A DNA stretch of 64,000 nucleotides from Psilocybe cubensis (lineage: Eukaryota): NCBI GenBank assembly GCA_017499595.2, contig CM039002.1, positions 2,170,001 through 2,234,000 of the forward strand, written 5' to 3'. The notes below the pieces were generated by a model, which made no database searches, was not told the DNA's origin, and worked only from the letters and a program-made list of their open reading frames with translations. The position numbers and the translations under genes were made by a program. Positions 7,337 through 33,082 of this stretch are shown one piece after another; position 1 is the first letter of the stretch, and every line of letters begins with the position of its first letter.

Positions 7337-7926
7337 CTACTCCGAGTTTCCCAGATCTTCGCGGACACTATGCCTCTCTTCTAACTTAGTAAGAGTTTTT
7401 GCAATGCATCTATCTATGTATGCATGATATCGTCTATCAGTGTCCGCTACCTTCAATTTGGCAACCTCCGCCATATAAAGCCTATGTGCGGCGTCTTTGT
7501 ATGAAATGCCAAGGCTTTGTTTCAAGGCTTGCACTTCACTATGAAGTGCAAGCATCTCATGGTCGGTTAAAGACTACCAACATTATTAGTTCCATTCATC
7601 GTACTATATATCATACTATTGAAATGGACTCACGTTTTCAGGAGGCACACGTAGAATACCTGATAGAGTGAGATATGAGTCGGATTGTTTGGCGTTGGGC
7701 TTCTATATCTTATGGTCAGTAAATAAGTTTTGACGGACTGTTAATTCAGACTTACTCGAGTGAGGTCGGCATTATTAACAATCGGATCTTCTTTAGAACC
7801 CAAAACTGCCAAATCGTGCTCCAATGACGGAATCATGAAGCGGGGGACAACATATTTGATGTTATCGGGGCCGTCGATGGCAATATAACCTTCCGGGATT
7901 TTAGGGGAGGAATTCTGGGCACTCAT
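7337..7926 (-). CDS. Small multi-exon helical protein of the outer KDZ element (gene A)
   Basis: Exons MSAQNSSPKIPEGYIAIDGPDNIKYVVPRFM... and ...LHSEVQALKQSLGISYKDAAHRLYMAEVAKLK. Positional and weak sequence counterpart of 18311-19453. Confidence 0.55.
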
Positions 7927-8184
7927 ATTGATGAGATTTTGAAGGCCACATCATGATCTCTTTATATATTTGTCGGACCAAGGCCGCTTTTGGGTACGCG
8001 ACTGATCGGACAAGCGCGTCAGGGCGCGATCAATTTGATATCTTTAGGTCATGTGATCGTTTAGCAGGCAGATAGCAAGCAACAGGCATGGTTCATCCGT
8101 TTCCCTGCTCTCTTTCCTTCATTCCACCACCACCTACATCTTTGCCATCAAGCACATTCAACCAAACACCAACTCAAGCACCCA

Positions 8185-10997
8185 ATGGACTCCAAGATCA
8201 CCGACGCAAAATCGCTCCGTCTCGCTCTCGCAAAGCTCGATGCCAATGTTAGGGATGCAGTGAGAAGTGGGGAGGTCAAGAAGGTGATGACAGACCTGAA
8301 CGGCCTGCTGGTGCGCCTGTTATTTTTTTTTTTTACTGGCATGATACTAACTTGAAGATTTAGAAAGAGATTTTTCATGTCAAAAAGGCCCGCATCCATC
8401 CCGAAATCTTCAAAGAATTCGGGAACTTCGTGTGGTCCGTCATTGTGGATTACAAGAAATCGAGCAAAGCGAGCGATTTTGACATCGCCGGCTTCGTCAC
8501 CAAGCATCGCAGTGCACTGGCAAACATCGAGGGTGGTAGTGCACTACCAGCCTCTACCTTACCCGACCAGCACAAGTCGGATGTCGGGGGGAATCCTGAC
8601 ATCGTGTCGGATACCTCTCGTGTCAAGGGTTCCGACGGGTCGGATACCTCTCGTGTCAAGGGTTCCGACGGGTCGGATACCTCTCGTATCAAGGTTTCCG
8701 ACGGGTCGGGGTCGGCCCCGCCTCCAGACAACAGCAAAATGTCCAACCTGGAGTCGACCCCCACTCAAGGCCGCACACCCACACCTACAAACGTTGAGCG
8801 TCGGGAGTCCAATTCCGAGGCTCTTTCTGCCCAGCATCGCAAGGGCTTGAACATCATCACTCAAACTATGTCTGTCCATGCTGAGAGAACGTCGACGCCC
8901 TCTAATGCCACGATGCGTACGTACTTTTTCTAACATTTTGCATGATTTTGTTGTAATTAATGTGGTCTTGCTATATTTAACACGTCCAGGGCCTTCAAAT
9001 CCGTCATCCCGCCCCGCAAATCTTACCCCGTCATTGCCGCCTAGCGCAGCAAACCCCATTGTCCCTCCTGCTAGCACCTCTTTCCGTTCGATGTCGACAT
9101 CTAATCCCGTCGCTCTGCCTGCCAACAAAGCAAACGACATGACCAAAGCGCAGGGCAAGCCCAAGAGGACCTCCAAGGGTGGTGAGAGCACCAAGGACAA
9201 CTTGAAACCACAGTCAGTCGGGATTTTTGCCCATGAGGTTGCAATGGCACATTTTGACCGCCCCGACAGCCCCGAAAACAAGTTTCGGGCTTTGAAGCTT
9301 CAGAAAATGCTCAAGGAAGGTCCGTCTCGGGAGCCCATATCTGGCTCTGAATACCAGGGATCGTCGTCGGAGAATGAGGAATCGGAGGAGGAGAAGGCCG
9401 TTGGAAAGCGCAAGAGGTCGTCAAAGGCTTCGACCCCAATTCTTGCAACAAAGTGCGATTGGTGCATCAAGTACAACACCCAATGCGACGAGATACTCGA
9501 CAAAACTGGGAAACGTGCTTGTGCCATCTGCAACAGGCAGAAGAAGGGGTGTACATGGGGCGGTACACTTGTTTCCGAAAGTCGTCGGGCGCAGAAGGCT
9601 GCTGCACAGAACGCCAAAGCCAACACCAATGGTCCAACCAATGCAAATACGAAGACATTGAAGGCTACAAGAGCTCGAAAAGCCAAGAAGTCGGAGTCAA
9701 ATCAAACCGACAGCGAGGTAATGCCACCCAAGAAAAAGGTCAAGAAGTCTCTTCCTTGTATGTGCCCTGAATATTTTGTTCCTATTTGTTTGAATCTCAT
9801 AGTTTTCATAGATGTGGTGGACAGCGATGTCATTTCAGACGGTGCAAAGTCCGATCGCGAGTCCAAGCAAAAAAAGAACAAGCCATTGGATTCAGGTGAG
9901 TGCAACATTGTTGGTAGTGCATTACTTCAAAATTATTGATTCTTTGTTTTGAAGTTGATTACGTCGAGATTACCTCAGGTTCCGACACGTCCCAGTCCCC
10001 ACCCAAACCCATTTCAAAGCCCACCCCTTCGACAACAGTTCCGCCCGCCCCTTCAAAAACAATGCCGCCCGCCCCTTCAACAACAATTCCGCCCACTCAC
10101 TTGGCAACAATTCAAGCCCCACCACCACCACCTCAACGCCGTTTGCAGGACTCCGACCTGACCGATATTCCACTTGTTTCCGACCTCCTTAATCGGATGA
10201 ACGAGATGGAAGTTACAACCTGCGCCCTTCAGGTTGACTTAGCCCTGCTGCGGACAACAAATGAAGAGCTGCAGGACGAGCTTACTAGCGTAAAGTCGGC
10301 ACATACATCACTCAAGCGTCGTTACGATGACCTATATGAAAGGGTCACCCAACATCGTAAATCTGCAGCGGATTGTCAGTCGGCTTTTGCGTTGAAGTGG
10401 GGGAGTGGGATGAGCAAAATCAAGGCCGAGGTCAAGTATCTTTCTGACTGCCTTGAGAGGACAGAAGATTCCCTCGTCGTCCTTGAAGGACGTGTTGATG
10501 ATATTGACAAGCTTCATCAAATGCACAGCGACGGTGCGTATCTTTCTTGGGATGGGGAGTCCGATGGAAATGATTGTCCAATTCCAATGGACATGTCATC
10601 GGATGAGGCAAGCCATTCTCTGAATGCTGCCACTAACAACCCCACCAACCCCACCATTGACAAGCCCGCCTCCGACACGAAGTCCGACCCTGCCTCCGAC
10701 GAGAAGTCCGACCCCGCCTCCGACGCGAAGTCCGACCCCGCCTCCGACAAGAAGTCTGACCCCGCTTCCGACGACAATTCCGACCCCGCCTCCGATGACG
10801 ACGCTGATCCCGCTTCCAACAACAATTCAAATGCCGCTGCCAATGCCAACAAGGACACAGTAGAGGATGCTGTTAAGGCTAACAAATCCAATTCGGACAA
10901 CAATCCTGATCCCATGAGTGGTGGTGATGTTTTTATTCCCCCACAACCACCCACTACTCCCCCAGCACTTCCATTGTCGCCACCACCAGCTTTGTAG
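8185..10997 (+). CDS. Zn2Cys6-like cluster, coiled-coil, low-complexity protein of the outer KDZ element (gene B)
   Basis: ATG at 8185; intron 8311-8363 keeps the frame. C-x2-C-x6-C-x11-C-x2-C-x6-C at 9454-9552, heptad coiled coil at about 10190-10510, basic NLS-like patches. Confidence 0.7.
8606..8704 (+). repeat. 3 x 33-bp coding tandem repeat (SDTSRVKGSDG); each unit carries an inverted GTCGGA...TCCGAC pair
   Basis: gtcggatacctctcgtgtcaagggttccgacgg repeated at 8606, 8639 and 8672. Confidence 0.9.
10664..10820 (+). repeat. About 6 x 24-bp coding tandem repeat (PASDxKSD), mostly two TCCGAC per unit
   Basis: cccgcctccgacgagaagtccgac-like units. Confidence 0.85.
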
Positions 10998-11181
10998 AAT
11001 GTCAATTGGAATGACTGTAGTTGATTGTGTCGGGCGTTTTTTTTTTAAAAAAAATATTTCTTTCAATATAATATATTTTGTTGGTCTCCCTATCTGCTGC
11101 TGAATTGTGTGATCCTAGGGTAGAATATCATTCTTAGTTGAAATCAATTGCTACTGCATTAAGTTGGGTAAAGTTGTCTAA

Positions 11182-13737
11182 TTAACTTGTCCTTTCACGA
11201 GGACGTCGGACCCGTTTACCCTCTACTATTAATGATTCTTCTACCTCCTTTCTTTTCTTTCGATTTGTGGGCGCAGGTATGGCAGGAGTCGGAGTCGATA
11301 CAGCAGCGGAAATGGGAGTTGAAGTCAATGCAGTAGTGGAAGCGGGAGTTGGTGCCAATGGAAGAGTAGACCCATGAGTTGGAATCAAAGGAAGTGCAGA
11401 AGCAGGAGTTGGAGCCGATGCAGAAGCTGACATGGGAGTCGGAGTCGATGTAGCAGCAGACGCGGGAGTTGGAGTCAATGTAGTAGCAGACGCGAGAGTC
11501 GGAGTTGATGTAGCAGCAGACGCGGGAGTCGGAGTCGATGTAGCAGCAGACATGGGAGTCAGAGTCGATGTAGCAGCGGAAGCAGGAGTTGGAAGAGTCA
11601 CTTCCCCTGCTGCATTGGTTCCAAGTAGCATGTCAGAAACCTGCCATGCATTACGAAGATCTTGTTGATTTTGCTCATACTCCGCAATTTCAGCAGGAGT
11701 TGTAGGTGGTTTGCAAGGTCGGGGTCGGGGGCGAGGCTTGCTGGTATGTAATTGAGTATGATCGGCATTGACTTCACCTGGTCTATTCAAGAGAACTTGC
11801 ATGTCCGATGGAAAAGGCTGCAAAGTAGTGGGAGTGGACTGATTAGCTGGTGTGACACCGCTAGTAGCAGGAGTTGCTGGTGTTGGAGTGCTAGTAGACT
11901 CGGCCATTATTGCTAATTGTAGCAATGAGATGAGGGCCTTGACATTGAAATCGGTAGACTCACTTCGCAAAGACGGGTCAATCATGCAATCCAAGATTAT
12001 GTTGGCATTGGGGGATGTTGATGTCTGCATAGATTCCGGAGTAGACTCAAATGTGATCAGACTTGATCCGCCCTGCATGTCCTCAATACGTGTCAGAGCC
12101 TTCTTTGATTTCTTTGATTTTTTAACAGGTGGCCGACGCTTGGTCTTTTCTGTGTCAACAGTACGAGTTTCATCAGGATACCATGTATCCTCAACGTCAT
12201 CTCCTTTTCTCCCCTTCTTAACCTTTCGAAACCTAAAAACTTGGCTTAGCGGAAATGTTTCCTGACGTGATCGGAGATGAGTGAACAAAGTGCGTAAGTC
12301 TTCAAGGTCAAGAAATCGGGGCCGTTTTAACTTGAAGCGGGGTGGCAAGTACTCTGGAGCAATAAACTTGGATTGGGAGAGCTCAATTGCCTCATAGGGT
12401 GTTTGCGAAGTGCGGCCATGTGTTGCAAGTTCTATTAAAAACTTAGTACCAGTAAAACTTATGGAAGTTCTCAATAGTATATACTTACTATAATTTTGTC
12501 CAAGATAAAGTCGTAGAAGTGACTCTAAATCTTTTCTATTGACCTTGGATGCATCAAAGTCTTGAGGCAGCATTGGGAATCCATCCGCGTCTTGATCAAG
12601 TATGAACATGTCGGATTTTGCCGTTACTTGCAACCCAGATGTTGCTCTTTCTTTTGCATTCAATAATCCGCGAACATAGGTACTTATTAGCCGCTTCATC
12701 TGGGTAACTTCATCTGGTTTTTGTTCTTCAAATAATGTTGAACAAACGCCAATAACACTGGCTACTTGATCATGACTGTGTATTGAATCAGTCGGAGTAA
12801 GTGAGTCGGAGTGAGTCGGAGTCGGTCGGAGTCATTATATAAGCAATATGAAAGCGGACTTGTGATTTCAAAACGCACACTTGGACTGACAACTGGCCAG
12901 TTTCATTAATCTGGCAAACAAATGTAATGCTCATTAATCCCATTTCCGCCCATTGCTGGATTGCCGCCTCATCTAGTGTCTTGAAAGCATACTTCCTTGC
13001 TTTCCTAAGCAAAACAAGTAAGCAATTAGGCCAATATTGTAATGAATTTGATCACTGACTTGCGTTTGTCCTCGTCGGAATATACCACTGAAGTATAATT
13101 TGATGCTTCTATGTCAAGCTGTCTCTTCTCGCGGTCGGACATTCGGGAAATAATGTTGCTCATTGCCTTCATACGGTTTTCAAAAACACCTGGTGTCCCA
13201 ACTCCGGCTGATTCAATTCCAAGAATGCTGGCAATCTCCTTGTAGACCTCGTCCCTTCTATTATACCAGAGTACAGTGGTACGTTTTAATTTTTTACCCT
13301 TTGTTGCAGCCTTTGTAAGCCGCTCCCCCCTCCAGTTGTTTCGAATCCATGCAAGCAGTTTCTTTGGGATAAAATATTAGATCCGACCATTGTAATAGAC
13401 ATATAGCCATACCTATTGTGTAATCGGGGCAAGTCGGGGCCGACAGTTGTTAATAAAAAATACAAATACAGTGTCCGACAAACACAATTACCTTTGCCTC
13501 CTCCTGCATAAACTCTTTACTACGGCTCACAACCCTATTTTTACTCCAGTGATTGAAAAGAGCAGGTAGTATTTCACATACTACCTGCTTACGGTCAAGA
13601 TTTGTCGACGCCTTGGTGTATTTGTCTTTGAATCTCTCAATAATTTCACGTTCATGGCGATCATACACCCTGACCAGTCTGTCATGAGCTCTAAACATGT
13701 CTTCCAGTATTGGATTTGGTGCTTCAGTACTGTCCAT
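11182..13737 (-). CDS. Multi-exon homeo/HMG-like helical protein, divergent from the transposase (outer gene C)
   Basis: Spliced product includes [66 protein letters not shown]...FRFRKV, collinear with gene 22794-25104. C-terminal 30-bp repeats and NLS-like KRVRRPRER. Confidence 0.7.
11400..11595 (-). repeat. About 6 x 30-bp coding tandem repeat ([10 protein letters not shown]), several units with GAGTCGGA
   Basis: gggagtcggagtcgatgtagcagcagac-like units on the + strand. Confidence 0.8.
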
Positions 13738-14035
13738 GCTGTACCAAGGAAAAAGGATAATGAAACTATGAGATAACTCTACATGTATGAGGACAGACCA
13801 ACCTTGACAATTTTCAAGTGTTAAAAATCAAAACTGCGCTGGAAAGAGGTAATGGTGGGGAAGAATGAATGCAGACAAACGCTTCCCAGAACCCCACCTC
13901 CTTTATAGGAATCTACACACATCAAAATATGTATATTAGGTAAGTTGAAACTATGCAGTTAGTACTGGAATGTGCCACCCTAAAGTATAGCAGTTGATCA
14001 ACCAAGATAGGTAATTTTCTCCTCTTGTCTCTAAT

Positions 14036-17000
14036 ATGCCATCTCAACGAACATCAAGCACCAGGAAAGCTAAGAAGAAGGCACTATATGAAGATGATGC
14101 AAATGCAGCAGATGCCGTAACATACAAGCATCAAACCAGAACAACACGAGCAGGCAAGGTTGTTTCTGAGCTTGTAAAGGTCTCTTTGAGCACTTCAGAT
14201 AGACCCCGTAGAAAGAACCCAGGAGAACCAGAAGTGCCAAATGTGGATGAGAATGCCAGTCAGGAGTTCAATGGGGACAATTATGGGGCACCAGAAAGTC
14301 CCCACGGTGAAGATGTAGTCCCCAAAATATGCAAGGTGTGTGTATATTTTTTATTTTATAGATCAGCTTACCATTTATTTTTGCGTAGACGCAGCGAGAC
14401 TATATTAACCAATACGTGTCTCGTGTAGATGACTTGCTGGGAGCATTGCTCAGCCGAGAGGCACCCAACATTCCAGACAATTCCGAACGGCCTATTTGCT
14501 CTAGCTGCAATAATGATTTAATTGCAGTATGGCGTTGTAAAGATTGTAGCTTACCATCCATGGTTTGTAGGATGTGTATGCGACACACTCACCAAGTAAA
14601 TCCAATGCACAGAATAGAACGTTGGACGGGATCCTACTTCCGGCAGGCACATCTATGGGAAACTGGTACCTATATTCTTATACCCCATCACACTGGAGAC
14701 TCTATATGTTCGTCACTGAACTTTCAGATTAACTACCTTGAAGGTATTGAGGAGGAAAAGGACAAAGAGGAGCAAATACAACTACACCAGTTGACATGGA
14801 AACAAGCGCCCGTCGGAGACTTTTTGACAGGTCATGCCGAAGATATTGATATTCAAATGGATAGCCCTGAGGATGACCCGACTCATATTCACGAAGGCCC
14901 TACCGATGATGAATTTGAAGAGTACCTAGACAAGTGTCGAGAAAATCCTTCGCTGCTGGATGACTTCCATGATTGTGATGATGAAACCGAAGTCGGGGAG
15001 GCGGAGGATGATGTGCAAGATATGCCTTATTATCTCCGACCACATTTTGGCAACAAAAACAAAGTCACCCCGACAGCAACTCCAAAGACCGACGGACTCA
15101 ACAATGCGTATGTTCGGGCAATTCACACTAATGGTGTTCATCACTTGGCCATGGTATATTGTGTATGTCATGGTGCCCAACAGCTTCCTCAGGATCTTAT
15201 TGCAAGCCGATTATTGCCAACAAGTTTTCATCGCATTCGTACCGTATTCTCTGCTCAACTTCTAGACTATTTCCGACTATCCAATCTGGAGCTCAAGGCT
15301 TCGGCTTATCAGTTTTATTCTCTTATCCGACGAATGACAAATCCATTGTCTCCTTCTAGTGTTGTGGATTTATACAATGAATTCCGAAGAATGTCAAGAC
15401 TATGGAGGTGGATGAAGAAACTTAAATGGGCAGGGTTTGCAGGACATAATGGAAAAACTGCACTGTCTGTCGGAAAAGGCGAACTTGGTATTTTCTGTCC
15501 CGCATGCCCACAACCAGGTATTAACTTACCCGACAATTGGAGAGAAGATCCAAATCGTTGGGTTTACAAACGAGTATTTGTGGCCGACGGAAACTTCAAA
15601 GCAGACCATGTCCGCTCAGAAAAGCCATCTCGGGATGTCTGGCTTTCGGAAGGCAGTGGCATGATTCCAGATCGCACAGAATATCATGCATTCCTTAAAT
15701 CTGCAATAGAGGCATTGACAGTCAGTATATTCAGTACTCTTGTTTTAATTCAAATATAGTGAAACTAATCTATGCTAGGGTGCTCCATGTGAGAATACCT
15801 TCCGTGCAATTCAAAACTCACTGCTATCTAAGTCATCTTGTGACGTTACGGGGATTGTTGGCATTGCTTGTGCCCGACATGGCTGCTACGCCCCAAATGC
15901 AATTGTAGACCTTTTTAAAGGTGAGCAGCAGAAAAATGTTGACTTTGCATTTTTGGCTGCGCTTGCATCAACTGGAGTCCATCCCGACCAAGGCACTATG
16001 GTGATATATGACATTGTCTGCCAGTACATCATATGGCTGCTCAAACGCATTAAACACCATCTTCCTGAAGGTCTCAAGATTGACAGAGCAATTGGAATGT
16101 TCCATGTTCATGCTCATAAAGATGAGTGTTTTTTCAGATATGCTCCCACATTTATTCCTGGTGCCGCCTGTGTGTGTGGCGAGATTCTGGAGTCATTGTG
16201 GGCCGACTTGAATGCTATTTCTCCAGCGGCTCGTACAGCAACACTGGCTCACCGTGCTGAAATCCTTGACGATCACGCTTGTGACTCCAACCACAAAAAA
16301 GCACTTAATTTAACAAGATACCTGTGCCGACGATACCTCGAAGCCGACGAGACAAGAGACAAATATCGGATATGTTTTGCCAATCTTAACAGTGCTGTCG
16401 ATCCCGAAGCAGTTAAACTATGGATGAAGCAAATTGAACACGTAGAAAAAAATCGATTGGAAGACCCTAAACTCATGGATATATATACTGCTAAGCGACC
16501 CGGATCTGTTCCAGTCAATACAAGTACAAGTGACTGTGCCTGCCCTACTGTGCCGCTGACTCCGGTACAGTCATGGATCCAATTTGCATTAGTGATTGAA
16601 GAAAAGCAGTACGTATAATTGTTTAAATTACTATACATTTTTAACAGTGCAAATTCCATTGTTTAGATTAGACATACGTATGCGTGCACGGCGGCTTGTC
16701 AATCATGATCGTCTCCCCGACTGTGTCAAACTCCAGAAGCTACGCGAGTCTCTCAAGACATTAATGGTTCAGCTTGCTAAACTTCAGTCTAAAGCTGGGG
16801 TGATTGCTACTGGGAGGCAAGATATTGAAATTTCCGACCAGATTTTAATTGATTGGGAAGACGAAGAAGACGTTTTAGCTCCAGGATCGGGTCCAACAAT
16901 AAATGAAGACATTGACCTACAGCCAATATGCCTACCATCAAATGGCAGTGCAGATGCAATGTATGCATCCGATGAACTCAAAGCCAGAATATCCCAAGCT

Positions 17001-17745
17001 CGAGGCCATCTTAATCAAATCCGAGAGCTTATCGCGGAACGCTCCTTTCAGTTTAAAGAAGTTGTCCAAAAGGGCCCACGTAAAGGTGTCCGCACACGAG
17101 GTCAAACAGCAGTAAAAGAGTTAAAAGATCAAATTTCTCTACATGCTCAGGCATATTCACACTGTCGAAGTCGCATTGTCAAGCTCGGGGCCGACGATGA
17201 AATTCTTAGAGAGTTGCGCATTTTAACCAAAGATGACATCAAGTCAAGTACTGCAATTCTCAATCCAAATTTGCCAGGGTCAACCAAATTTCGTTTATCA
17301 TGGATTTGGTATTCTGTACACCAAAGATTTGGACCGCGGTGGGCACTTGACCCGACAGCTACACCTGATTCCGACCCAAACGCGTTATCGGAGGACGCAG
17401 ATCCTGCCACTGTTCTTGAATGTGAGTTAAATCATTAATATTCAACCATGGGCGCTTATATATTCCCAACCCAATTTTATAGTTAAAAGAGTTCATTGGT
17501 TGCGTGCAAGGGCACTATATCACAGGTGGAATGAAGAAGCAACCCTTGTACGATATGAGATGCAGTGGACCGTTGCATATTTTATGCATCAGAGTAAAAA
17601 ATGGGTGAAATATGTCGAGTCGGGGCCAACACTCAGCGCGGGTGCAATAGCTTACGCTTATCGCAAATCTGATTCTTGGCGTAGCTTGGCGATGGCTGGA
17701 GATCAATTATTTAAATGCATAAATCCCCTGTACAAACCATTGTAA
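14036..17745 (+). CDS. KDZ transposase with N-terminal CxC2 cysteine cluster (outer element)
   Basis: CxC2 region WRCKDC...CRMCMRHTHQVNPMHRIERWTG, IHTNGVH, CPACPQPGINLP; catalytic core DGNFKADH, CARHGC, KGEQQKNVD, YDIVCQY, FHVHAHKDEC, GEILESLW; C-terminal WLRARA...RWNEE. About 5 exons, no disabling change seen. Confidence 0.93.
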
Positions 17746-17779
17746 TTTCAAATACCCCTCTTGTTCACTTACTTCCATC

Positions 17780-17914
17780 ATGAGCACTGAAGAACTCGAT
17801 CCTATCAAAGTTATCACCGTCTTTGACCCTTTCGATCACAATTACGCACGCCGGTCAAAGAAAGGGAGGCAAATTCAAAAAACGGTTATTTTTGCAAATT
17901 CAAGATTCCGCAAT
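17780..17914 (+). pseudogene. 5' part of outer gene E, interrupted by the inner KDZ insertion
   Basis: MSTEELDPIKV...NSRFRN ends exactly at the TSD and continues in frame at 33533 (ILEHILKAPTVRQKKWMQECLQIEL). Confidence 0.8.
17908..17914 (+). repeat. Left target-site duplication CCGCAAT
   Basis: Identical 7-mer at 33526-33532, immediately outside the right TIR. Confidence 0.92.
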
Positions 17915-18232
17915 CACATAAGACAGTTTATTTATAACGTACATTACCTAAGATTTAATAATAAGGATATTACGTGAGACACGGTGGATTTACTTCCGCT
18001 ACCTAATTAGGAGATTAGCGTGATGTACGTGTGATTTAGCCTGGCAAATCATAGCGTACATGACGTGCCATTTAGCGCTAAATGGAGCCGCCGGGTGGCC
18101 TGCGGGATCCGCGCGTCTACCTACACGGAAGAAACACGGGCCGGAAATGAGCCGGACGGGTCCATTTGCATCCCGTGTATTGCAAGCAGACGGATCCGCT
18201 TGACCCGTGTTGTGCTGTCAGACGGACCCATT
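17915..18232 (+). repeat. Left terminal inverted repeat (318 bp), begins CACATAAGACAG
   Basis: Reverse complement of 33208-33525 except at 17980/33460 and 18038/33402. Confidence 0.95.
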
Positions 18233-22515: not shown

Positions 22516-22793
22516 TGTATTTCAATTCTTTGTAACTTTTTTTTGGTCTCCTTTTTTGCCTGTCATATATTACATTGCTCACATCCCTATACAATTTTTT
22601 CATCATTTGGACTGTATATAGTTTTTACTCTCATGTGCTCATCTGTTTTATACCTCTCCCAAAAAGTAGCACTTGATGATTTTTAATGAACCCCGCTTTC
22701 TGTTTTGATTTTGTGTGAAAACATGTTTGAGAAACATCAAGATAAGAATAAAAAGCATCACATTCAATAGGTATCATGAATCTACTTCAACAG

Positions 22794-25104
22794 CTAGGCT
22801 TTCAAAGTTTTTTTTCTTTGTCTTTTACCTGCTACAGCAAGCAGACTTGCTTCCTGAAGTGCTAAGGCATCCGAAGTCACATTCCTGCGGGCCCGTGTTT
22901 CATCCGTATCTGGACTTGTTACTGTCTCCACAAAGGCATCACAAGTCACGTCCCTGCCGGCCCGTGTATTATCCGTGTCTTGGGTTGTTCCTGTTTGGAC
23001 TCCATCTTCTTCCACTGTGTCAAGTGGATCTGAGTAGGGCTTTGTTCTTTTCCTAGGTTGAATCCTTCTAGTTGGTTTTGGCTTAACTGGGGGGGGTACA
23101 GAACTCTCTTCATTGGGTCCGTCCATTTCCGCCGTTCCGACATATGGCTTTGTTCTTTTTCTTGGCATAATCTTTCTAGCTGGCTTGGGAGGCGCCTCCT
23201 CAACCTCTGGAGTTGGGCTGGATGATGGATTGACAATTGTTGGGCTGGATCTACTTGGTAGAGAGGGTGGCTCGCTAGATCTTGAAGGTGCGTCGGTAGG
23301 AGTCTCATCCGTCTCTGGCGTGACTTCAAATCTGGCAGTAGTGCGTGGCATCGCGGATGCCGGACTGCCCCGTCCATTATCAAACTCTGACAGATTGGAT
23401 GATTCAGAGTCGCTTGAAGATTGGGTTTGAAGTCGTATAGCTTTTTGCCTCAGCCGACGTTTGGTTATGGCTGCAGGAGGTGGAGGTATCGGGTGGGCTT
23501 CTAGGCCGTCAAACAAGTTGGACGGATAGAGAGGTTCCATAATGTCATAGCCATTTCCAAAAACCTTTGAGAATTTAAAGGGGATGTCTCCTTGCGCTTG
23601 ACGGTCCCTCCATAGCTTGAGAATTGCAGAAGTTGACTCCAGGCGGAGCCGGCTCGGATCCGTCACGGGGATTGAACTTGGCCAATACTCTGGATCAATC
23701 ATTTCTGCAGAACGCCTTTCAAGAGCATCCCAAGGAACACTTGAACCAGGCCTATCCTTGGCTAAAGCTGTATACATAGTTAGCAAGTTTGTTGAGGACA
23801 TAGACAAATTACACACCATAAACCTTGTTCATGTAAATTCTAATAATTGACTTTTGCGCATAAGCGACTTCTCTCCCAGTTGAGCCATAGATAGGACTAG
23901 GTACTATTGGAAATCCATTGCTGCTAAACTTGAGGGATTTTTCATGAAACGATGCATCTGGCAGTGCTGGATTGGCCACACCCTTCTCTATTTCTGAAAT
24001 GTGGACGAGGTATTGAACAAACGCTCTGCGAAAAGCGGCCAACTCGGATGGAAAGAGTTGCCCAAAGGAAGGAATTCTGACATTGTCGAGTGCTAGATCG
24101 CTTGTCTGGGTCCTTCAATGCCCATCAGTCAACATTAATACGGGTCAAATTATTCCGCCGTGAATGCTTACGGCGGAAACTTTATCCGCCGTAGGGTGTT
24201 TACGGCGGATAAAGTTTCCGCCGTAAGCATTCACGGCGGAACTTGTTCATGCCGTGTTTAACACTTACATTGAGTATTCGATTTTACCCTCAATATCATA
24301 ATGCCCCTCAAAGGTAATGGACCTCATACCCATTCTCTGCCACTTAAGTTTCTCCATTTGTCGAAGTATTTTTCTGCCTTGCCTGGCAGCAGTCCTGCAG
24401 ATGTCAGATTGACGGCGGAAACAAGTTCCACCGACTCACTTTGCCTTCATTGATTTTGAAACACCTTTCTTATTCCATTCCTCGAGGATCTCCATGAACC
24501 TGTCCCGCTCCTCCTGAGTCAATCTGGCCTCAACCTGCTTACGTCCTTGTTGATAAAACTTCATCCAATCTTTACTTCCACGAGCAGCATTCCCTGATAG
24601 AAGCGCAACCTCGGAGTCAATCTCTGCCGACTTCTCCTCACGGAATACCGTCTGAAAGGTTATACGGGAGTTCAATCCTTCCAATTTTACACCAATTCGA
24701 TTTGACGCATGGTTTCTAAACCAATTAAAAATTCGCTATTGTGATGGTTTATGTGTGTAACAAAATTTTCAAAGAAACAACGAGCTCACATGCTTCTTCA
24801 CCTTCCATTCTTTGTGTAGTTGCTTATCTTCCTTCCTAGCACGTCTAGAGTATCTGTGATCCCATGTAGCTTGCAGCTCAGGTATGACAGTGTTCTGTAT
24901 GTAGTCTGCTTTGGATGACTTTGATGTATCTTTGTAGGGCTGTACATGCTTTTTCAACACGCGCATTTCCTTTGTGGTCCATATATTTGATTCTTCCGGC
25001 GGAAAGTCACCCTCTGCCGTCTGTCCGCTTCTGGGTCCGTTGTGGGTTGTGGCATTTGCGGTGGAAGGAAGCGGATCCGCGTCGGGGGATGCATTGGTGG
25101 GCAT
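22794..25104 (-). CDS. Multi-exon homeo/HMG-like helical protein, divergent from the transposase (inner gene C)
   Basis: Spliced motifs RIFNWFRNH, RLTQEERDRFMEILEEWNKKG, WQRMGMRSITF, NGFPIVP, VPWDALERRSAEMIDPEYWP, WRDRQAQGDIPFKFSKV. Homologous to 11182-13737. Confidence 0.72.
24153..24241. repeat. Perfect 41-bp inverted repeat with 7-nt loop inside an intron
   Basis: TTCCGCCGTGAATGCTTACGGCGGAAACTTTATCCGCCGTA - GGGTGTT - exact reverse complement. Confidence 0.95.
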
Positions 25105-25983
25105 AATTGCAGCGATGTAACAAGTAGCTTATCAATGAGTATCTGTGTGATCTAGTCAAATCTCACGTCATACGGAGATAAAATAAGCTTCCGATCATAC
25201 TAAATGAATGATGTGATGTCATATTTTTCCCAATCAGGTAATCCCGCTTCATAGTCGGCCACGATGATCAAAGCATGCTGGTCGCTGTCACATACATTGA
25301 CCTCATGATTTTGCAATAGTTCCCTCTGCACTCAATCAATAAACATGAAATTTTGTAAACATTTAGCGCTTTATATAAAGATAATCTTACAAGGTTTTAA
25401 ATTCTTGTTAGATGGCTGTAAAGATACAGAAACACAAAATTCAAATTCACGTCTTCTCACCCAAAACTTGTGAAACCCAAAACGGCAGTCATCTCAGAGA
25501 CCATGAGAGGTATTCAAATGCATAATTTTTTTCAAAAAATATAATGATCCCAGTGAGCTCATTTTGACACATTTTCTAGTATATTGAGAATATCTCCTTA
25601 AATACGAGGATTCACATTCTACAAAAAATGTCATTCGGTAGCTATTAAAAATATCTTTCATATGATATACGCCGGAGGAATGAGGGGCCAGCCAGTGAAA
25701 AGATATTTCAAAAACACTCCAAAGTGTGGTTCTGAAAGGGTCGTTCTGCATCATATTGTACATTTATGATGGGATCACGTCCATTTTGTGCATCTCTGGA
25801 TTAAGTTTTGTTCATAACATTTCACTCACTCATCCAAATATGCTGCAAGATAGATCATATGAAAGCTATTTTTCTCCTCTTTAAAACGGCATAATTGAGG
25901 GAAATTTATCTACAGAAATAAACATGTTATACTACATTTAGATCTGCGCTCACAGGCTGTCAGACTCTTTGTTTCCAACATCC

Positions 25984-28900
25984 ATGGGCTTCAAGAAAGT
26001 ACCTGATAGGGGATTGGATGAGGAGTTTCCCAATGTTCGGGAGGCCTCCTGGTCTAGTGGGGCCAAGAAACGAAAGAGAGGGCGGCCGAGGATCCACAAA
26101 CTTCCTGCAGAATCATCATCAACAAACCTCCCTCAAACAACGACTTACTCTTTCCAAAACCATGAACACAACATTCTGGAAGAAGAAATACCTCATTATC
26201 CGGGAGATCTAACTGATCAGCAGGTACTTGATAACCTGAGACAGCTAGATGACGACAGAACGGGAGGAAAGGTATGTTTTAACATGTTTTCAGTAGAATG
26301 ATCAGGATGACTTTACCTATCCAGTCTCAAAATGATTACCTGAGGGAATGGCTCCCGAAACGAGAGGTGTATCTTGGAACAATGATTGGAGGAGAAGCCC
26401 CGGATCCGGATCTGAATGGACGGTGTCAGCAATGTCAAGGAATGTCTGGAGTGTGGAGATGTTGCCAATGCTTTGGCTCTAGAATTTTGTGTTCTGAATG
26501 CCTGCAAAGAAACCATCAATTTACACCTTTCCACCGCGTTGAGAAGTGGACGGGTCTATATTTCCGTCCGGGAGCTCTGTGGGAAGTGGGTGTCAAGTTG
26601 TATTTGGGTCATAATGGGAAGCGGTGTCCTTATCCCACGGATCCGAGCCATCTAGGATGCGACGGCGGAAACAATTCATCCGGGAGTCATGGGCACGGCG
26701 GAAACAATTCGCCCATCTTTGAGGATGAACACGGATTGGATCTGGATCCGCTTCCTGCGAGCAATGACCAAGAATCCTTTACGGCTCAGCTTCTGGCAGA
26801 CCCGGAGGTACCCCATTTGGTTGAGCTGGACGATGGAGACGATGAAGACGATGATCTATTCGAGGAAGTCGATACAACCTATCTGGACCAACCTCGTCCA
26901 AAGGCAGCAGACAACAATGGAATTCCTTTCAAGGCAATTGTGCACACCTCCGGAGTCCATTATCTGCCCGTGCGAACATGCACATGCCGGTCCGTCCGCC
27001 TTCCGTCTATCGATTTACAGTATCTGGAGATGGGATTATTTGCAGCCAGCTTTGAAAACGTTCAAACTGTGTTCACAGTTGAGGTCCTTGAGGACTTTTG
27101 GATGGACAACCTCGAGTGCAAAACGTCGGCTTATCAGTATTACCAAAAGTTGCGAAGACTGACTTCGCCAGCGTTTCCAAAAAAGGTGCTGAACCGCTAT
27201 CGTGAATTGAGAAGGCTTAGTAGAGAATACAGGGACCTTGTCCTGAGACGACAATACGGAGAAGGGCATACAAGAGAAGCGGTGGTCCCTTACTATCATC
27301 ATTGCCATGATTCATCACCAGAGAGGATGGGTATTAATGTATCTGATCCAATTGACGGCGGATCTGATAGTCCGTCTCAAGAAGTCGGAATGTCAACGGA
27401 CCCGTCTCTGGGACACGGCGGATTAGATGGTCCGCCTGCACCACACATGACGCGGACCGAGGATCATCCCAAAGTTGAAGATAGGAGAGGGAAGTTGGCC
27501 TTATTCTGCCCCGCCTGTCCACAGCCTGGAATAAACCTACCTGATACCTGGATTGATGATGCTGACAGGCAAGTTTTAGTTATTCTTCAAGGGTGACTGC
27601 AATTAACAGCAAATAGCAATCTGCACATACGTAGTTATGTTGCAGATGGTAATTTCAAAGCAGATCACCTCAATCAGAAAAACGAGGGAGACGATGTTTG
27701 GTTGAGCGTTGGAGAAGGATACATGACTGCTCCGGGCCCATACAAGGAGCACATCAAGGAAGCAATTTCTCTTGCTCCACGTTATAAACGGGTGCGTTAT
27801 CTACCATGATTTATCTTTCACGGCGGATGCTTACGTTCCGTGTCACAATCTTCCACGGCGGATGCTTCCCTTCCGTGTCAAAAAAATCTTCCACGGCGGA
27901 TGGCTTATCCTCCGTGTAAAAAAATATCAGGAACAAACATGTCATAACTACCACACCCAGAAAGCTGAAAACAGAGTCAGCCCGGGTAAGAGAGTACGTG
28001 GAATTGGGGCACACGCTTGCGCTAGGCACGGATGCTTCTGTCCATCCAGCGTTGTTGATTTTGACAAAGGCGAAAAGCAGATGCACATGGATTGGTCTTT
28101 GACTCAGGCCAGGGAAACTACCAACACACAGGGAATCACAAAACATTTGGAAATCTACGATATAAACTGTCAATATTGCGTTAACTTGGCAAGGCGTCTC
28201 TCAGAGTCCACAAAAATGCATTGGCCACCTTCTGTTAAAATGATTTTTGCAATTGGTTTATTTCACGTCCACGGGCACAAGACGGAATGTCTTTACAACT
28301 ACGCATCCACCTATGTCCCGGGTGTGGGAATCATTGACGGAGAAATCCTGGAGCCGTTGTGGTCCGTGTTAAATGACACATCCCGGAGTACACGTTCCGC
28401 TACCACTGCCCATCGAGCAGAGGTTTTGGACGACCACATGGGGGATTCCAACTGGAAGAAGACCATTAATATGGCTGCAACAATTGCTGCAAAGTTCAAA
28501 CGGGCACGGGAACAGTCCGGAATCACAGACCGATTTTATAGGGGTATCACGGATCAACAAGATTCCGGGCTCATCAACACTTGGGAAGATGAAATTTCAA
28601 AAGCAGAAGCGGACCGAGAACAAGGTGTGGCCGACGCTGTTGGCAAGGTAATGGCAAGCAAAGTGAAAACGGCTGCTGGACGCCAAGAAATTGAATTGCA
28701 TCTTTCAAATATGGAACTTACATCTAATGGTGCTACTGGAAAGGCAGCATGGATATCATCCGGCTTAAAACTGGAGCAAGCGCAGTACGATTATTTCAAT
28801 TGCATCCTACAGAATTTAACATGCTTTTAGATTGGAGCTCAGGGACCATGTCAGAAAGCTCGGAAAGCATCCTTCCACCGCGCAGAAACTTGACTTGGTC

Positions 28901-29906
28901 AATAAACGTCGCTCCATGCGGACCCGCGTTGAAGCCTTCTGTCGATCCGCTATGACCTTCATGGGCGAAGATGTCTTGGAGGATATTCAAGGGGACATCG
29001 CTCCCATACTTGACTATGAAGTCAGTGACAACGACGATCCTGATCTTGGAAATGTCAACATTACCCGCGCGGATCCGGAACGACAGCCGCTTCCGTTTCC
29101 CTCCGCCGTCAAACAAGATTTCTTTGACGGCCTTGACGCGGGAACAAACCTCATTTTAAAAGGGCTTCGCAAACTTGAACTTCAAATAAGACATGGCCAC
29201 GCAGAGGACTGTCTGGAAGCGGTCCGGTCAGCCTTGATCCAGCTTTCTTGGCAGTATAAATATCAGGTTTGGACCGCCGACTCCGTCTATATGGGGACTC
29301 GTGCTTGGGATGGCGTCAAGCTTTTGAATGCTTCCTGGAAATTGCACCGGCGACTCTACAACACAAACCGTCAGAAGATGATCTATTTATCTGCTGGCGT
29401 GCGAGACGAGGATAATATTCGGAAACAATATCCCATTCTGCAAGTCCATGATTGCAAGCATAGTAATGCCGTGTCGGATCCGAACATTCGCGGAGGAAGC
29501 TCGGACCGTCTAAGTTGGATTTGGAGATCCCGTCAGGGCCTGGACAATGATAATCAATTATACGTTAATGAGTGTGAGTACTGCTATTTGTATTTCTAAT
29601 TTTTTTCTCAAGGGCTTCTTAGTCTTTAGGCTAAACTGGCTCCGCGCGCGAGCTCAGAGGAATAGATGGCAAGAGGAGCTGGCCTTGACAAAAAAGGAAA
29701 TGGAATGGACTGTCAGATTTTATGTGTATATGGCAAAGACATGGCGTGCACGGCATGATTTTGTTCCTGACAGGTTAGTTGGTCACAGGGCAAATGCTCA
29801 AAAGCAGATTGCCATGTGGAATGATCTGGGGCGGGCCGCGGATAAGGTCTTCCGTCAAATTAACCCGGAGTATCCGTCCGTGTGGAGATTTATAATTACA
29901 GATTAA
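25984..29906 (+). CDS. KDZ transposase with CxC2 cysteine cluster (inner element)
   Basis: WRCCQC...CSECLQRNHQFTPFHRVEKWTG, VHTSGVH, CPACPQPGINLP, DGNFKADH, CARHGC, KGEKQMHMD, YDINCQY, FHVHGHKTEC, DGEILEPLW, WLRARAQRNRWQEE. About 6 exons including a GC-AG intron at 27569-27616; frame intact. Confidence 0.94.
27818..27920 (+). repeat. 3 x about 33-37-bp tandem repeat (CACGGCGGATG...TCCGTGT) in a transposase intron
   Basis: Lies within intron 27792-27930. Confidence 0.85.
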
Positions 29907-29950
29907 CCAGTTCTTTGAACATTCTTGTTGTATCCCATCTCGTTGAATTC

Positions 29951-31575
29951 ATGCACTTACCGCGGCTTTTTAAACCTCCTGTCGAGGACGAACATCATCT
30001 CCTTACCTATGATGAGCGACGTGCTCTGGCCAAAGTTCATGTCCATATTTGTGGTGCACGGATCCGTGCCGGATACCGTTTGTTCATTGCAAACGGAGAC
30101 TCTGTTTCCTCCGTGTGTCGCCAAAAATGGATGTATTTGCTCGACCTGGAGGTGGTAAGACAGTAATTTTGAACGATTATATCTTGTATTGAGAACTGGT
30201 CGTCAGGCTATACTGCTGAGAGTACTCGGATACTGCTATGTCAATGGATTCCAAGTCAATATTCCATTTTTTATATCAGAAATTCTCAATCAGAGCGTAC
30301 ATGCCGTTTTGAACCGAACTCCCCACCATCAAGCTGTTCTATTTGAATCTCTAAATCAAAGCTGGTCAGCATGGGAAGATGATGAAATTTTAAATCAGAC
30401 CAAGAGCTGGGGATATTGGTGGAGGGACGGATTTGCTGAAGGCGATGAGTGGCAAGTTGCCTTTGTTACCGTTGAATCGCAAGCAAGAGAATTTTGGAAC
30501 AAGGTATGTTTTTTTATTGCTGTGGATTATATCTGATTTGCGTCCTTCCCACCAGGTGGTTCTGCCTGAATACCAACAAGAGGTACTCCGGCTAAATAAT
30601 CAGAGGAAAGAAGCTAAGGAGGGCGCAAGTTCATCTACCTCTGGGCCTCCAAGAAATCAGGAAAACAATCCCAAGGGCAAGGGAAAGGCGGCTGAACGGA
30701 CATCCGTCCCCACCTCGGGGAAGCACGGATCCGCGTTGACGGGAAAGCACGGCTCCGCGTTTTCACCGCCCACGGGGAAACCCAATCCGCCGACCCGTGT
30801 TGCAAACACGCGGGATGAAACATCCCCAATTGCAATTTCTGACCACAGACCGCCCTACTGTCCCCGCTGCGGTCAGCCTATCCTAACGGGCGTAATGAGG
30901 GAGTTGGCTCACCTGCGCCGGAATGTGGCGGACAAAATGAAAAATGCCCATAAAGCAGTGACTACTTCTTCGGCCGCCTTGGGCAGATATTCTGTATTGG
31001 AGAAGATGTGGATTGACTCTAAGGAGCACCCGTTCTCTAACGGCAAGGGGCTTTCAGCCAAATACAAATTTCAGCATCCCGTTCACCCTTCTCCTGACAG
31101 TTGGGGCGCTATAACGGCTCAAGCCCGGTCCTTCGAGGTCTCAAAGCTCAAAGTCGCTTCATTTTACATCAACGACATTTTTTATTCTTTTATTGCCGTC
31201 AAGGAACTACCTTTTCATCCACTCTGGTATCATTCGCCACCCTCCAACACTGCAAATATTCATCTCCCAACAGATACTCTGCCTACTCCCGGTTCCGTCA
31301 GCCCTCCGTCAAATGCACACACCAGCAATGCCTTCCTTTTTAACGCAAGGTCAAGACCTGTTTTCCCGGGAGAAGAGGATGATATTGATAGTACGTCCGA
31401 TACCACTGAATCCTCTACACCAGCTACGTTTTTAGAGCATCTCGCACAGGACTTTGAAGAGGAGGCGGATGAGGAGTCTTCCGCCGGTAATACGACGGAG
31501 GAGTCAGATGCTTCCGGTAACTCGGAAGAGCTTAGCGAGGACGTGTCGGAAACACCCTGGGATGAGGAATCTTAG
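29951..31575 (+). CDS. Acidic-tailed CxxC protein downstream of the transposase (inner gene E), 3 exons
   Basis: MHLPRLFKPP...RQKWMYLLDLE | AILLRVLGYCY...GYWWRDG | ...CPRCGQP...QARSFEVSKLKVASFYI...D/E-rich tail. Homologous to the split outer gene E. Confidence 0.65.
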
Positions 31576-31708
31576 TTGCCCACCTCTCGCACAGGACATC
31601 AAAGAGGAGGCGGATGATGCCTTTTCCGCCGGTAATACGACGGCGGAGTCCGATGATTCCGGTAACCTTGGAAGAGCTCAGCGCGGGCGCGTCGGAAACA
31701 CCCTGGGA
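31441..31708 (+). repeat. About 123-bp direct duplication (31441-31562 and 31586-31708) of the end of gene E
   Basis: ctcgcacaggac...gaggaggcggatga...ccgccggtaatacgacgg...gtcggaaacaccctggga occurs twice. Confidence 0.88.
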
Positions 31709-31802
31709 CAGAGAATTCTGGTTGTTCTGTAGCTTTCGTACCGTTTTGTTTTGGAAATATAAAAAAATCTTCCCCAAACCCAACTTCCAAGTCAAAAACT
31801 GA

Positions 31803-33082
31803 TCATATTTCAAAATCAAAAGTGTTGGTGGCCGGTAAATTTGCAAAAAGATCGTACGTAGTAGACCATCCCGCCTCTTGGACTCCCAGCTCTTTAAATA
31901 CATTCCTACGCATGTAATAGACTATGACTGCCCTATCTCCCTCGCACACCGCGCCGTGTTGAAGCAACCTGCCGGTAATTGCAACAAGGGTCATGGGATC
32001 ATACTTGTACCGAAGTCCAAGGCCAGGAAGCTCAAGCCGTCCGTGTTCACCCTTCCCAAGTGGCATCAAAAAATCGTACCATGAGTAGCATGACCCATTA
32101 TCCCGATGGTACGGTGTATCTCGGTTGCTGATGGCGGTCATGACTCCAAAGGGCGAACTCCATATTGTGAGAATTTGCTTCAATATTTCGGCCTTATGGA
32201 CGAGCTCCGGTTCCGCAGCAAGCCGTTGAAGAAATTTTATTCCCGCCCGGTACTGCTCGGGGTGTATAATGCTCAAGATGGCTCCCAGCAAAGCCGAAGA
32301 TGTCATCATGTCTCGTATAAACTCCTGTCCAATAGGATTACACAAGTCCAAGGAGACCTCAAGCGGGTTGGACGTCTGAGGAAAATATGAGGCAGTATAA
32401 TACTTAGCAAACAAGTTTCTCACCTCATGGCCTTGCTGAAACCATGCCGGGGAAAAGTTAAGATTTCCAGGTTGAAGCCAACCTGGCTCATGTCGAAAGT
32501 AACTGTCATTGACCCTCCAGCTTGTGGCCAAAGGTGCCGCCTTGTGAATCATTGTTTCAATATCCCGTAATGAATTCCACACACTCTCCTGTTACTCTTT
32601 AGAACGCATAATATAGGAATTAATCGGTCCGTTTCTAAAACTCACCACCCTTGTCTCTGACAAAATACCTGGCAGGTACCACACCAATATGTTGCCTGCA
32701 CTATCGATTACAGTTCCGGGCAGGGTTTGGTACTGTAACGTGGAATGCACCGGAGGAAACTGGTCTTTCAGGCGAGCCTCAACGGCAGAATTCTGACCCG
32801 TGCAACGTGCGCTGAGATGGGTCAAATATTCTTCTGCATCCCACGTCATATATTCTGCCATTCACACATTATTTAATCTCAATTTTCAAAGCTTATTGAT
32901 TGCATACCTTGATTTTCAAATGCCTGCAAAATCACCTCCACAGCTAGATTGCACTCAAACATGGTCTCAGCACTGAAGTTTTCCCGGATTTGATTAGGCA
33001 GTTCTGCATGCCAAAGACGACTAGCTATCTTTGCCTTCATGTAGTTTGAGAGGGATTGGGTTAGCTCAAAGGCATAATCCAT
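31803..33082 (-). CDS. TET/JBP-family 2-oxoglutarate/Fe(II) nucleic-acid dioxygenase, 4 exons
   Basis: Fungal TET/JBP motifs GNILVWYLPGIL, SPAWFQQGH, LSIIHPEQY, ISNRDTPYHRD (HxD), LELPGLG, LLQHGA (distal His) and DRAVIVYYMR (2OG-binding Arg). Confidence 0.9.

Follow-up and report, generated by a model that had tools for sequence, protein, structure and literature searches.

A stretch of 64,000 nucleotides (nt) of Psilocybe cubensis contig CM039002.1 (hereafter the window, whose numbering is used for all positions) contains two large mobile elements, one inside the other, both of which fit the Kyakuja group of the KDZ superfamily. In each of them the KDZ transposase gene is accompanied by four further genes, here called A, B, C and E, and the order and orientation are common to both, namely A(-) B(+) C(-) KDZ transposase(+) E(+). 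This order had been proposed in an earlier reading of the sequence (the original prediction) and was borne out by the gene models, which were built from splice signals, reading frames and homology together with two public annotations. The layout proposed at the same time, two elements over 7337-33082, had to be redrawn, as element 2 (17915-33525) lies within exon 1 of gene E of element 1 (6948-35877). We consider it very probable that these are two autonomous, nested Kyakuja-type transposons, each with its transposase inside the same ordered A-B-C-KDZ-E module. The public proteins identical or nearly identical to the window genes are P. cubensis hypothetical proteins. The features are as follows (lengths of proteins in amino acids, aa).

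6941-6947, no strand: target-site duplication CATTTTT of element 1, left copy, 7 bp
6948-35877, plus strand: element 1, Kyakuja-type, without TET; 13,312 bp of its own DNA, host of the nested element 2
7337-7926, minus strand: gene A1, 158 aa; exons 7756-7926, 7634-7702 and 7337-7573
8185-10997, plus strand: gene B1, 875 aa, 4 exons; Cys6 cluster at 9454-9552, coiled coil at about 10167-10604
11182-13737, minus strand: gene C1, 736 aa, 5 exons; HMG-box-like domain in exon 2, 13060-13361
about 14036-17745, plus strand: KDZ1 transposase, start approximate and exon model unrefined; Pfam CxC2 3e-17, KDZ 3.4e-38
17780-17914, plus strand: gene E1, first 45 codons of exon 1, cut by element 2; E-family profile 1.7e-15
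17908-17914, no strand: target-site duplication CCGCAAT of element 2, left copy, 7 bp
17915-33525, plus strand: element 2, 15,611 bp; TET-bearing Kyakuja-type transposon, multi-copy, polymorphic at this site
17915-18232, plus strand: left terminal inverted repeat of element 2, 318 nt, beginning with CACATAAGACAG
18311-19453, minus strand: gene A2, 364 aa; exons 18581-19453 and 18311-18532
19939-22515, plus strand: gene B2, 838 aa; exons 19939-20070 and 20131-22515; Cys6 cluster at 21214-21333, followed by a coiled coil
22794-25104, minus strand: gene C2, 668 aa, 5 exons; homologue of C1
about 25984-29906, plus strand: KDZ2 transposase, start approximate and exon model unrefined; CxC2 5.1e-21, KDZ 3.1e-37
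29951-31575, plus strand: gene E2, 506 aa; exons 29951-30154, 30207-30503 and 30556-31575
31803-33082, minus strand: TET/JBP dioxygenase gene of element 2; Tet_JBP domain on 31806-32591, upstream exon limits unrefined
33208-33525, minus strand: right terminal inverted repeat of element 2, 318 nt
33526-33532, no strand: target-site duplication CCGCAAT of element 2, right copy, 7 bp
33533-35083, plus strand: remainder of gene E1; 33533-33607, 33658-34344, 34392-34911 and 34974-35083
35878-35884, no strand: target-site duplication CATTTTT of element 1, right copy, 7 bp

The KDZ (PF18758) and CxC2 domains of both transposases score above the curated cut-offs, and the two proteins are 41% identical in the catalytic core. 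The Tet_JBP domain (PF12851) was found at 3.6e-19, with 69 bits against a cut-off of 34.9, and HRD and QHG are present in the translation. With 17780-17914 included, E1 amounts to 508 aa in five exons, and the open reading frames (ORFs) of its remainder match the E-family profile at 2.5e-86, 2.2e-51, 5.6e-13 and 1.3e-08. The last exon of A1 (78 aa) is 100% identical to an annotated protein of 158 aa, the length of the A1 model itself, and the length of B2 is that of an annotated paralogue to which it is 84% identical. A public E2 model (P0004, 492 aa) uses an earlier donor for exon 1 and is without 14 residues (VCRQKWMYLLDLEV) kept in the model used here, which resemble the end of E1 exon 1. 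From the stop codon of gene A to the left end there are 389 nt in element 1, against 396 nt in element 2. Tandem 36-nt (12-aa) proline-rich repeats make up the N-terminal part of A2, with 13 overlapping windows listed over 18809-19456; in-frame tandem repeats are also present in B2 (20300-20734), C1 (11282-11611) and B1 (10641-10856).

A near-identical inverted DNA repeat was first seen by tblastx of the window halves. The repeat finder and a comparison of the arms showed that these match at 316 of 318 positions; both open with the 18-mer CACATAAGACAG, whose two matches in the window (0.04 expected) are the two ends of element 2, and the termini CACATAAG...CTTATGTG are of the form 5'-CA..TG-3'. 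Element 2 was delimited to 17915-33525 because these inverted repeats are flanked by direct 7-bp copies of CCGCAAT. It interrupts E1 exon 1 after codon 45, and the E1 reading frame (ATG at 17780, resuming at 33533) is restored once element 2 and one CCGCAAT copy are removed. Three DNA contig sets from a single study, all with the same species label, contain 87% of the words of 7337-17336, and two of them (runs X1 and X2) were compared with window positions 16200-36100. One contig in each run, with a depth of 23.4 and 19.7, respectively, omits exactly 17908-33525, with seven letters common at the joint (17907 to 33526), which is a single copy of the 7-bp target. In X1, 20 of the 23 bins wholly internal to element 2 have a depth of 270-372 and the flanks one of 23-29 (about 12-14x), although contig depth, by the tool's own warning, is not copy number; the other three bins (depth 91-183) lie over a low-complexity part of B2. 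All element 2 genes are at raised depth, and loose contig ends at 17912 and 33526 continue into other flanking sequences, from which it follows that the element 2 family is multi-copy along its whole length. Both elements have moved by cut-and-paste, each making a 7-bp duplication, and the move of element 2 is recent.

The limits of element 1 were obtained from an X1 contig end at 35878, which is preceded by a near-copy of 6910-6940 (one substitution and one 1-base indel). This joint of the left flank to 35878 is the empty site of element 1 and sets its limits at 6948-35877, with ends CACATAC...CCTACCTG, again 5'-CA..TG-3'. Element 1 has no long inverted repeat. A 19-nt subterminal one at 6961-6979 and 35812-35830 (18 of 19 positions matching) was considered as its terminus and rejected, as no duplication flanks it and the empty-site contig gave the true ends. 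At the end of element 1 (window 35456-36100) the X1 depth climbs from 23.4 to 39.3, which fits the presence of element 1 in one of two X1 haplotypes. CA-type left ends past gene A were also sought in the metagenome loci described below, where putative candidates only were found.

The 7-bp duplications and the 5'-CA..TG-3' termini fit an assignment of both elements to Kyakuja, for which TET-bearing members with the same duplication length and termini have been described (PMC12730594, Kojima 2025); the duplication of Zisupton is given there as 8 bp. The consensus lengths of TET-bearing Kyakuja range from 9.3 to 22.7 kb and several begin with CACATA (PMC12730594, Table S1), as do both elements here, and a size range of 9-23 kb is common to the listed families and to these two elements (PMC12730594). 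TET-bearing Kyakuja-1_LB and Kyakuja-2_LB likewise have a KDZ transposase with a CxC cluster, and the TET/JBP of element 2 is putatively of the agaricomycete type, as in TET-bearing Kyakuja, whereas two Laccaria Kyakuja families have no terminal inverted repeats and element 2 has repeats of 318 nt (PMC12730594). No Psilocybe family is among the Kyakuja listed in the part of that source compared, the comparison being by starts, lengths and descriptions, and its main text, as far as available, names the transposase and TET but no further gene (PMC12730594). The two elements represent new Kyakuja-type families in which the accessory module has been conserved.

The relationship of the paired genes was assessed by BLASTP, Smith-Waterman scores against 500 shuffles, HMMER profiles and hhalign. 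C1 and C2 match at a BLASTP E-value of 2e-18 with 22% identity over 393 aa, their Smith-Waterman z is 30.7, the C family profile matches C2 with an hhalign probability of 99.7%, and four introns coincide in place and phase. At the level of sequence, the C pair is proven to be homologous; the original prediction had been right on this point and had counted one shared intron instead of four. For E1 and E2, the pairwise signal is weak, in BLASTP (E-value 0.031) as in Smith-Waterman (z 5.3, reached by none of 500 shuffles). The E1-family profile against E2 alone gave an hhalign P of 6e-4, whereas the eight mismatched controls lay at 0.09-0.96. When the public E2 protein served as query in an exhaustive HMMER search, 12 proteins came up at an E-value of 0.001 or less, ten of them distant, the named relatives being from Galerina marginata and Hypholoma sublateritium. 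When the E2-family profile (11 sequences) was compared to that of the E1 family (28 sequences), hhalign gave 95.9% and an E-value of 5.8e-9 over 104 columns at the corresponding N-terminal place, and both families have GYCxVxGFxVxIPYL, YWWK and CxxC in common. The E pair, 508 and 506 aa long, is thus supported as homologous, as had been claimed, through family profiles.

The B proteins are also of similar length (875 and 838 aa), and the proposed first intron (following codon 42 of B1 and codon 44 of B2, phase 0 each time), Cys6 cluster and coiled coil were all seen. Smith-Waterman comparison gave a z of 5.2 for the Cys6 cluster (1 of 500 shuffles) and 3.2 for the coiled coil, and no significant similarity between the N-termini; the best pairwise BLASTP values for B and E are about 0.03. 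The B profile (14 sequences) matches B2 with an hhalign probability of 46.8% and an E-value of 2e-4, in an alignment that pairs all six Cys. The motif CxxCx6C(4-45)CxxCx6-8C, sought in six frames, occurs in the window at 9454-9552 (B1) and 21214-21333 (B2) and nowhere else, and it had no match in 100 window shuffles. These sequence comparisons support a relationship of the B pair at the Cys6 cluster only. A2 occupies the A slot, and comparison of the sequences does not support its relation to A1: the A profile had no match among the element 2 ORFs, its best match in the window (E-value 2.4) lies elsewhere, and A2 ranked 87th. In the Protein Atlas, the last exon of A2 had no usable match and that of A1 matched unnamed bacterial clusters only (0.94). 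The within-pair profile comparison that the original prediction had suggested came out in favour of E and in favour of B at the Cys6 cluster, and gave no support for A. Word-based protein searches with B2 and E2 found same-species copies only (three and one, respectively), and tblastx of the E2/TET region against 33533-42000 found no match.

To place the module among its relatives, metagenome contigs were scanned with an alignment of both KDZ cores, and the best 80 of 184 confirmed loci were taken. These are anchored solely on KDZ1 relatives (50-72% identity to KDZ1) and, having been chosen for likeness to KDZ1, describe the element 1 lineage only. By KDZ core they form 55 clusters at 90% identity and 26 at 80%, and the 13 loci that cover the B slot represent 10 clusters at 80%. 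With tblastn of the eight models at an E-value of 0.001 or less, relatives of A1 were found in 11 loci, of C1 in 36, of E1 in 29 and of C2 in 3, and no relatives of A2, B1, B2 or E2 in the 80 loci. Presence was then counted for each gene in those loci with enough flanking DNA:

gene C, minus strand, at least 2.5 kb of upstream flank: 24 of 24 loci
Cys6 motif, plus strand, at least 5.5 kb of upstream flank: 10 of 11 loci (11 of 11 on either strand)
gene A, minus strand, at least 7.5 kb of upstream flank: 4 of 5 loci (5 of 5 on either strand)
gene E, plus strand, at least 1.2 kb of downstream flank: 22 of 27 loci by tblastn, 27 of 27 by profile
TET, at least 4 kb of downstream flank: 0 of 6 loci

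In each of the five loci where tblastn missed E, a profile search brought out an E-family ORF. A single locus, L080, supplies both the eleventh Cys6 case and the fifth A case; its A-B segment (3267-5447) is inverted, so that the A and Cys6 genes run opposite to their usual direction relative to C and KDZ. Across the loci, order and orientation are common to A, B (the Cys6 gene), C and E, and the exon limits of C recur. In the 461 kb of the loci there are 15 Cys6 matches, 13 of them in the B slot; L036 has a second Cys6 motif (7042-7131), downstream of E, as if a further element followed. Median dN/dS ratios (nonsynonymous to synonymous substitution rates, Nei-Gojobori, over pairs) were 0.13 for KDZ (89 pairs), 0.30 for C (81 pairs), 0.335 for E (24 pairs), 0.37 for A (5 pairs, near saturation) and 0.39 for B (1 pair). 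C and E are under purifying selection; a comparison of dN/dS with that of KDZ had been proposed in the original prediction.

As the ordered set recurs in many environmental fungi, the helper genes are part of the transposon itself rather than stray host genes, and all accessory genes lie within the ends set by target-site duplications and empty sites. The view that the accessory genes are parts of the element, not captured host genes, is supported. The claim that A, B and E are core components therefore held as far as recurrence, order and ends are concerned, and was not supported as a claim of shared ancestry in all five slots, A2 showing no relation to A1 in the tests made and B being linked through its Cys6 cluster only. 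Since element 1 and its relatives are without TET, the TET/JBP gene is an optional addition to the module.

Some of the accessory proteins resemble known DNA-binding domains. For C, the structure of the N-terminal 227 residues of a relative was predicted with an overall pLDDT (predicted local distance difference test) of 72 and of more than 93 over residues 130-200. In the VIA structural search of representatives with this model, HMG boxes made up about 20 of the 50 best rows, aligned to residues 118-205, and included LEF1, capicua, Abf2p, HMGB1, SOX and TFAM; the root-mean-square deviation was 3.2-5.3 A for the better 13 of these rows and 5.6-11.2 A for the remaining 7. TFAM, Abf2p and tandem HMG boxes also lead the weak Foldseek list, at E-values of at least 3.2. 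Pfam HMG families did not match the C1 and C2 exons even at an E-value of 10 or less, the C profile (54 sequences) found no HMG protein among PDB sequences, and PDB sequence searches with the C, E and A family profiles gave nothing below an E-value of 0.4. In the B family, the six Cys are invariant in 14 of 14 members, and Zn_clus matches 11 of the 14 at an E-value of 1 or less (best 4.8e-4). The canonical Zn(2)-Cys(6) spacing is CX2CX6C-(5-12)-CX2CX6-8C; the spacers of B1 (2, 6, 11, 2, 6) fit it, and the longer middle spacer of B2 (2, 6, 18, 2, 6) exceeds it. Coiled-coil-type Pfam families match B behind the Cys6 cluster. The E model is all helical and poor (pLDDT 58.8, predicted template modelling score 0.29). 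In the A family the last exon is highly conserved (H.EV..LQ..LGISYKDA.HRLY), with the invariant H..LG.SY..A.HR present in A1. Pfam gave no match for members of the E1, E2 or A families.

Two short motifs are over-represented in element 2. The pair TCCGCCGT/ACGGCGGA occurs 20 times in the window, 18 of them in element 2 and mostly in introns and variable parts of KDZ2 and C2, against 1.0 expected, and none of 100 shuffles reached 20. The palindrome CGGATCCG is present in 10 copies (0.77 expected), all in element 2 and one in each terminal repeat. ACGGCGGA and CGGATCCG could be candidate binding sites of the Cys6 protein. The third intron of C2 contains the following feature:

24153-24241, no strand: pair of 41-nt perfect palindromes with six TCCGCCGT units

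An X1 contig omits 63 nt here (24152 to 24216), so the number of units in the TCCGCCGT palindrome differs between element copies.

In a separate observation, P0001 (B2-like, 84% identical) and P0018 (A1-like, 81%) have locus tags five apart on the same 4.19-Mb contig. A second, inverted copy of the nested arrangement would give this spacing, and the pair could reflect a preferred target or a duplicated composite.

These data suggest the following scenario. Element 2, which is young, multi-copy and TET/JBP-bearing, moved by cut-and-paste into an older, single-copy element 1 without TET, where it interrupted exon 1 of gene E. C, E and probably B were inherited from the common ancestor of both lineages, and the A slot of element 2 may hold an unrelated gene or one diverged past recognition. 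B may act as a DNA-binding dimer, through its Cys6 cluster and coiled coil, recognising CGG-type sites, and C may be an architectural DNA bender or binder through its predicted HMG-like box. A, B, C and E might assist the KDZ transposase in finding, pairing or regulating the ends of the element, or might control the expression or chromatin of the element, while the TET/JBP protein of element 2 could oxidise 5-methylcytosine on the element and let it escape silencing, an idea put forward in earlier work (PMC12730594).

Several results weigh against the reading of one module common to both elements, most of all at the A slot. The last exons of A1 and A2 score below the shuffle mean in Smith-Waterman comparison (z -1.1, 457 of 500 shuffles reaching the score), the A family against A2 gives an hhalign P of 0.47 and a probability of 0.7%, and A2 retains at most G, S and Y of the eight invariant A-family residues; the weak homology claimed for this pair was not found. 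The locus-built profiles did not find A2, B2 or E2 among 1277 window ORFs even with the HMMER filters off. For E2, they gave weak collinear matches at independent E-values (i-E) of 3-36, and the best pairwise alignment of E1 and E2 crosses the exon junction chosen here, where P0004 splices the 14 residues out. The B family profile against the spliced models matched only the Cys6 cluster of B2 (domain i-E 0.0059), the link between the two B genes is confined to these 37 columns, and seeds from the N-terminus and coiled coil of B1 found 0 loci, B being unconserved outside Cys6 even within the element 1 lineage. The domain assignments are subject to similar reservations: Foldseek gave nothing for the C model at an E-value of 0.001 or less, its HMG rows have Z values of 4.0-5.4 (middling by the guide of the tool) over 59-80 aligned residues, and Zn_clus (PF00172) stays below the Pfam cut-off of 21 bits in B2 (19.4 bits, E-value 0.0011) and B1 (8.7 bits), for which reason B is called Zn2Cys6-like and is not filed as a PF00172 member. 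Finally, the 80 loci, being those likest KDZ1, are silent on the element 2 lineage and include near-copies, the warning on contig depth given above applies to the copy number of element 2, and the present sequence results favour neither a cofactor nor a regulator role of the accessory proteins.

Among the alternatives, an assembly artefact or a segmental duplication in place of a true nesting deserves next to no credit, as it is ruled against by the exact empty site with a single 7-bp target in two other samples, and the nearly identical inverted repeats (316/318) with CA..TG ends and flanking duplication, as well as the E1 frame restored by excision of element 2 with one duplication copy, argue in the same direction. 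It is unlikely that only the transposase and C are shared by descent and that the A, B and E slots were filled independently in the two lineages, the shared order being then in part chance or the outcome of repeated cargo replacement. Such a history would account for the absence of similarity between A1 and A2, for the pairwise BLASTP values of B and E and for the element 2 genes missed by the locus-built profiles, but it is difficult to reconcile with the match between the E families (95.9%, 5.8e-9), with the B profile match to B2 (2e-4, six Cys aligned), with the position and equal phase of the first B intron (codon 42 and 44), with a Cys6 motif found nowhere else in the window, and with E and B proteins of close lengths in the two elements. 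For the A slot alone, we lean slightly towards replacement by an unrelated gene.

We also regard as quite improbable that the accessory genes are passenger cargo of host origin, like that of giant fungal elements, with no role in the life cycle of the element. A and E have no known domain, evolution is faster in the accessory genes (dN/dS 0.30-0.37) than in the transposase (0.13), and cargo has been suggested for the extra ORFs of Cryptococcus KDZ elements in a preprint (10.1101/2024.08.15.608186). However, loci that were sampled by transposase only, and that span 26 KDZ clusters at 80% identity (10 for the B slot), repeatedly carry these genes with order and orientation unchanged, the dN/dS ratios are clearly below 1, and the raised depth is common to all element 2 genes. 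A more serious competitor, possible but still less favoured, holds that the accessory proteins are owned by the element and act on host silencing or chromatin beside TET/JBP, not as transposition cofactors. The TET/JBP gene of element 2 would agree with it, such genes having been argued to counter methylation silencing (PMC12730594), and so would the resemblance of B and C to transcription-factor domains and the CpG-rich short motifs, which in element 2 are scattered over the interior as well as the ends; against it, the module is retained in the TET-less element 1 and its relatives (TET in 0 of 6 loci). The preferred reading remains that of two autonomous nested elements with a common ordered module.

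Parts of this picture are already in print, namely the KDZ/TET linkage and complete TET-bearing Kyakuja elements, the TET/JBP genes of which were proposed to counter methylation-based silencing (PMC12730594). The linkage of KDZ, TET/JBP and an HMG-like protein, taken as known in the original prediction, is thus documented for its KDZ/TET part, and its HMG part was checked by the fold search with C only. In Cryptococcus, KDZ1, KDZ2, KDZ3 and KDZx1 are mobile elements of 6.4-10.9 kb with target-site duplications, the extra ORFs of which have no predicted domains and are treated as possible cargo (10.1101/2024.08.15.608186). They resemble the present elements in large size, mobility, duplications and domainless extra ORFs, but belong to the Dileera and Zisupton clades, with a duplication of 8 bp in KDZx1, and the available part of that source describes no conserved module (10.1101/2024.08.15.608186). 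A search of the accessible literature found no description of the ordered A-B-C-transposase-E module, of a Zn2Cys6-like B or of the Psilocybe elements, part of which may be covered by Iyer et al. 2014.

That study (PNAS) reportedly linked KDZ elements to TET/JBP and a divergent HMG domain. Element 2, with KDZ, TET/JBP and a C protein that is HMG-box-like by fold search, would resemble the elements said to be described there, and any account there of A, B and E, of the gene order or of complete ends could overlap this work. Partner proteins are familiar from other systems: CACTA/En-Spm elements encode TnpA plus TnpD, PIF/Harbinger elements a transposase plus a Myb-like protein, and HMGB1 helps RAG and Sleeping Beauty. 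By analogy with these, a DNA-binding or DNA-bending partner may aid the transposase at the ends. Unlike CACTA/En-Spm and PIF/Harbinger, the elements described here have up to four accessory genes, among them Zn2Cys6-like and HMG-like ones, known from sequence.

The remainder of the window contains, outside both elements, a Ty3/gypsy-type pol fragment with a chromodomain (3-1964, plus strand) and, at 39800-54400, host genes for an aspartyl protease, a ThuA-like protein, DnaJ, an NSUN5-like methyltransferase and splicing factor 1/BBP. ORFs without a Pfam match on both strands (41052-41819) contain a 36-nt tandem repeat in four copies (41392-41581).

Most eukaryotic cut-and-paste transposons encode one or two proteins. 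A bolder proposal, which we put forward as rather doubtful at present, is that Kyakuja elements are five-protein machines, in which the KDZ transposase would work only with the element-encoded A, B, C and E and in which B would read CGG-type motifs that the element has itself spread. If true, this would be the most protein-rich eukaryotic cut-and-paste transposition system known and would explain the large size of the elements. In the accessible parts of the cited work, the extra ORFs of large KDZ elements are up to now treated as unknown or as possible cargo. The present analysis delimits to the base a complete and evidently recently mobile Kyakuja element, and the vague statement that KDZ elements encode additional proteins becomes a testable one, with defined ends and genes, four family alignments, and candidate domains and motifs.

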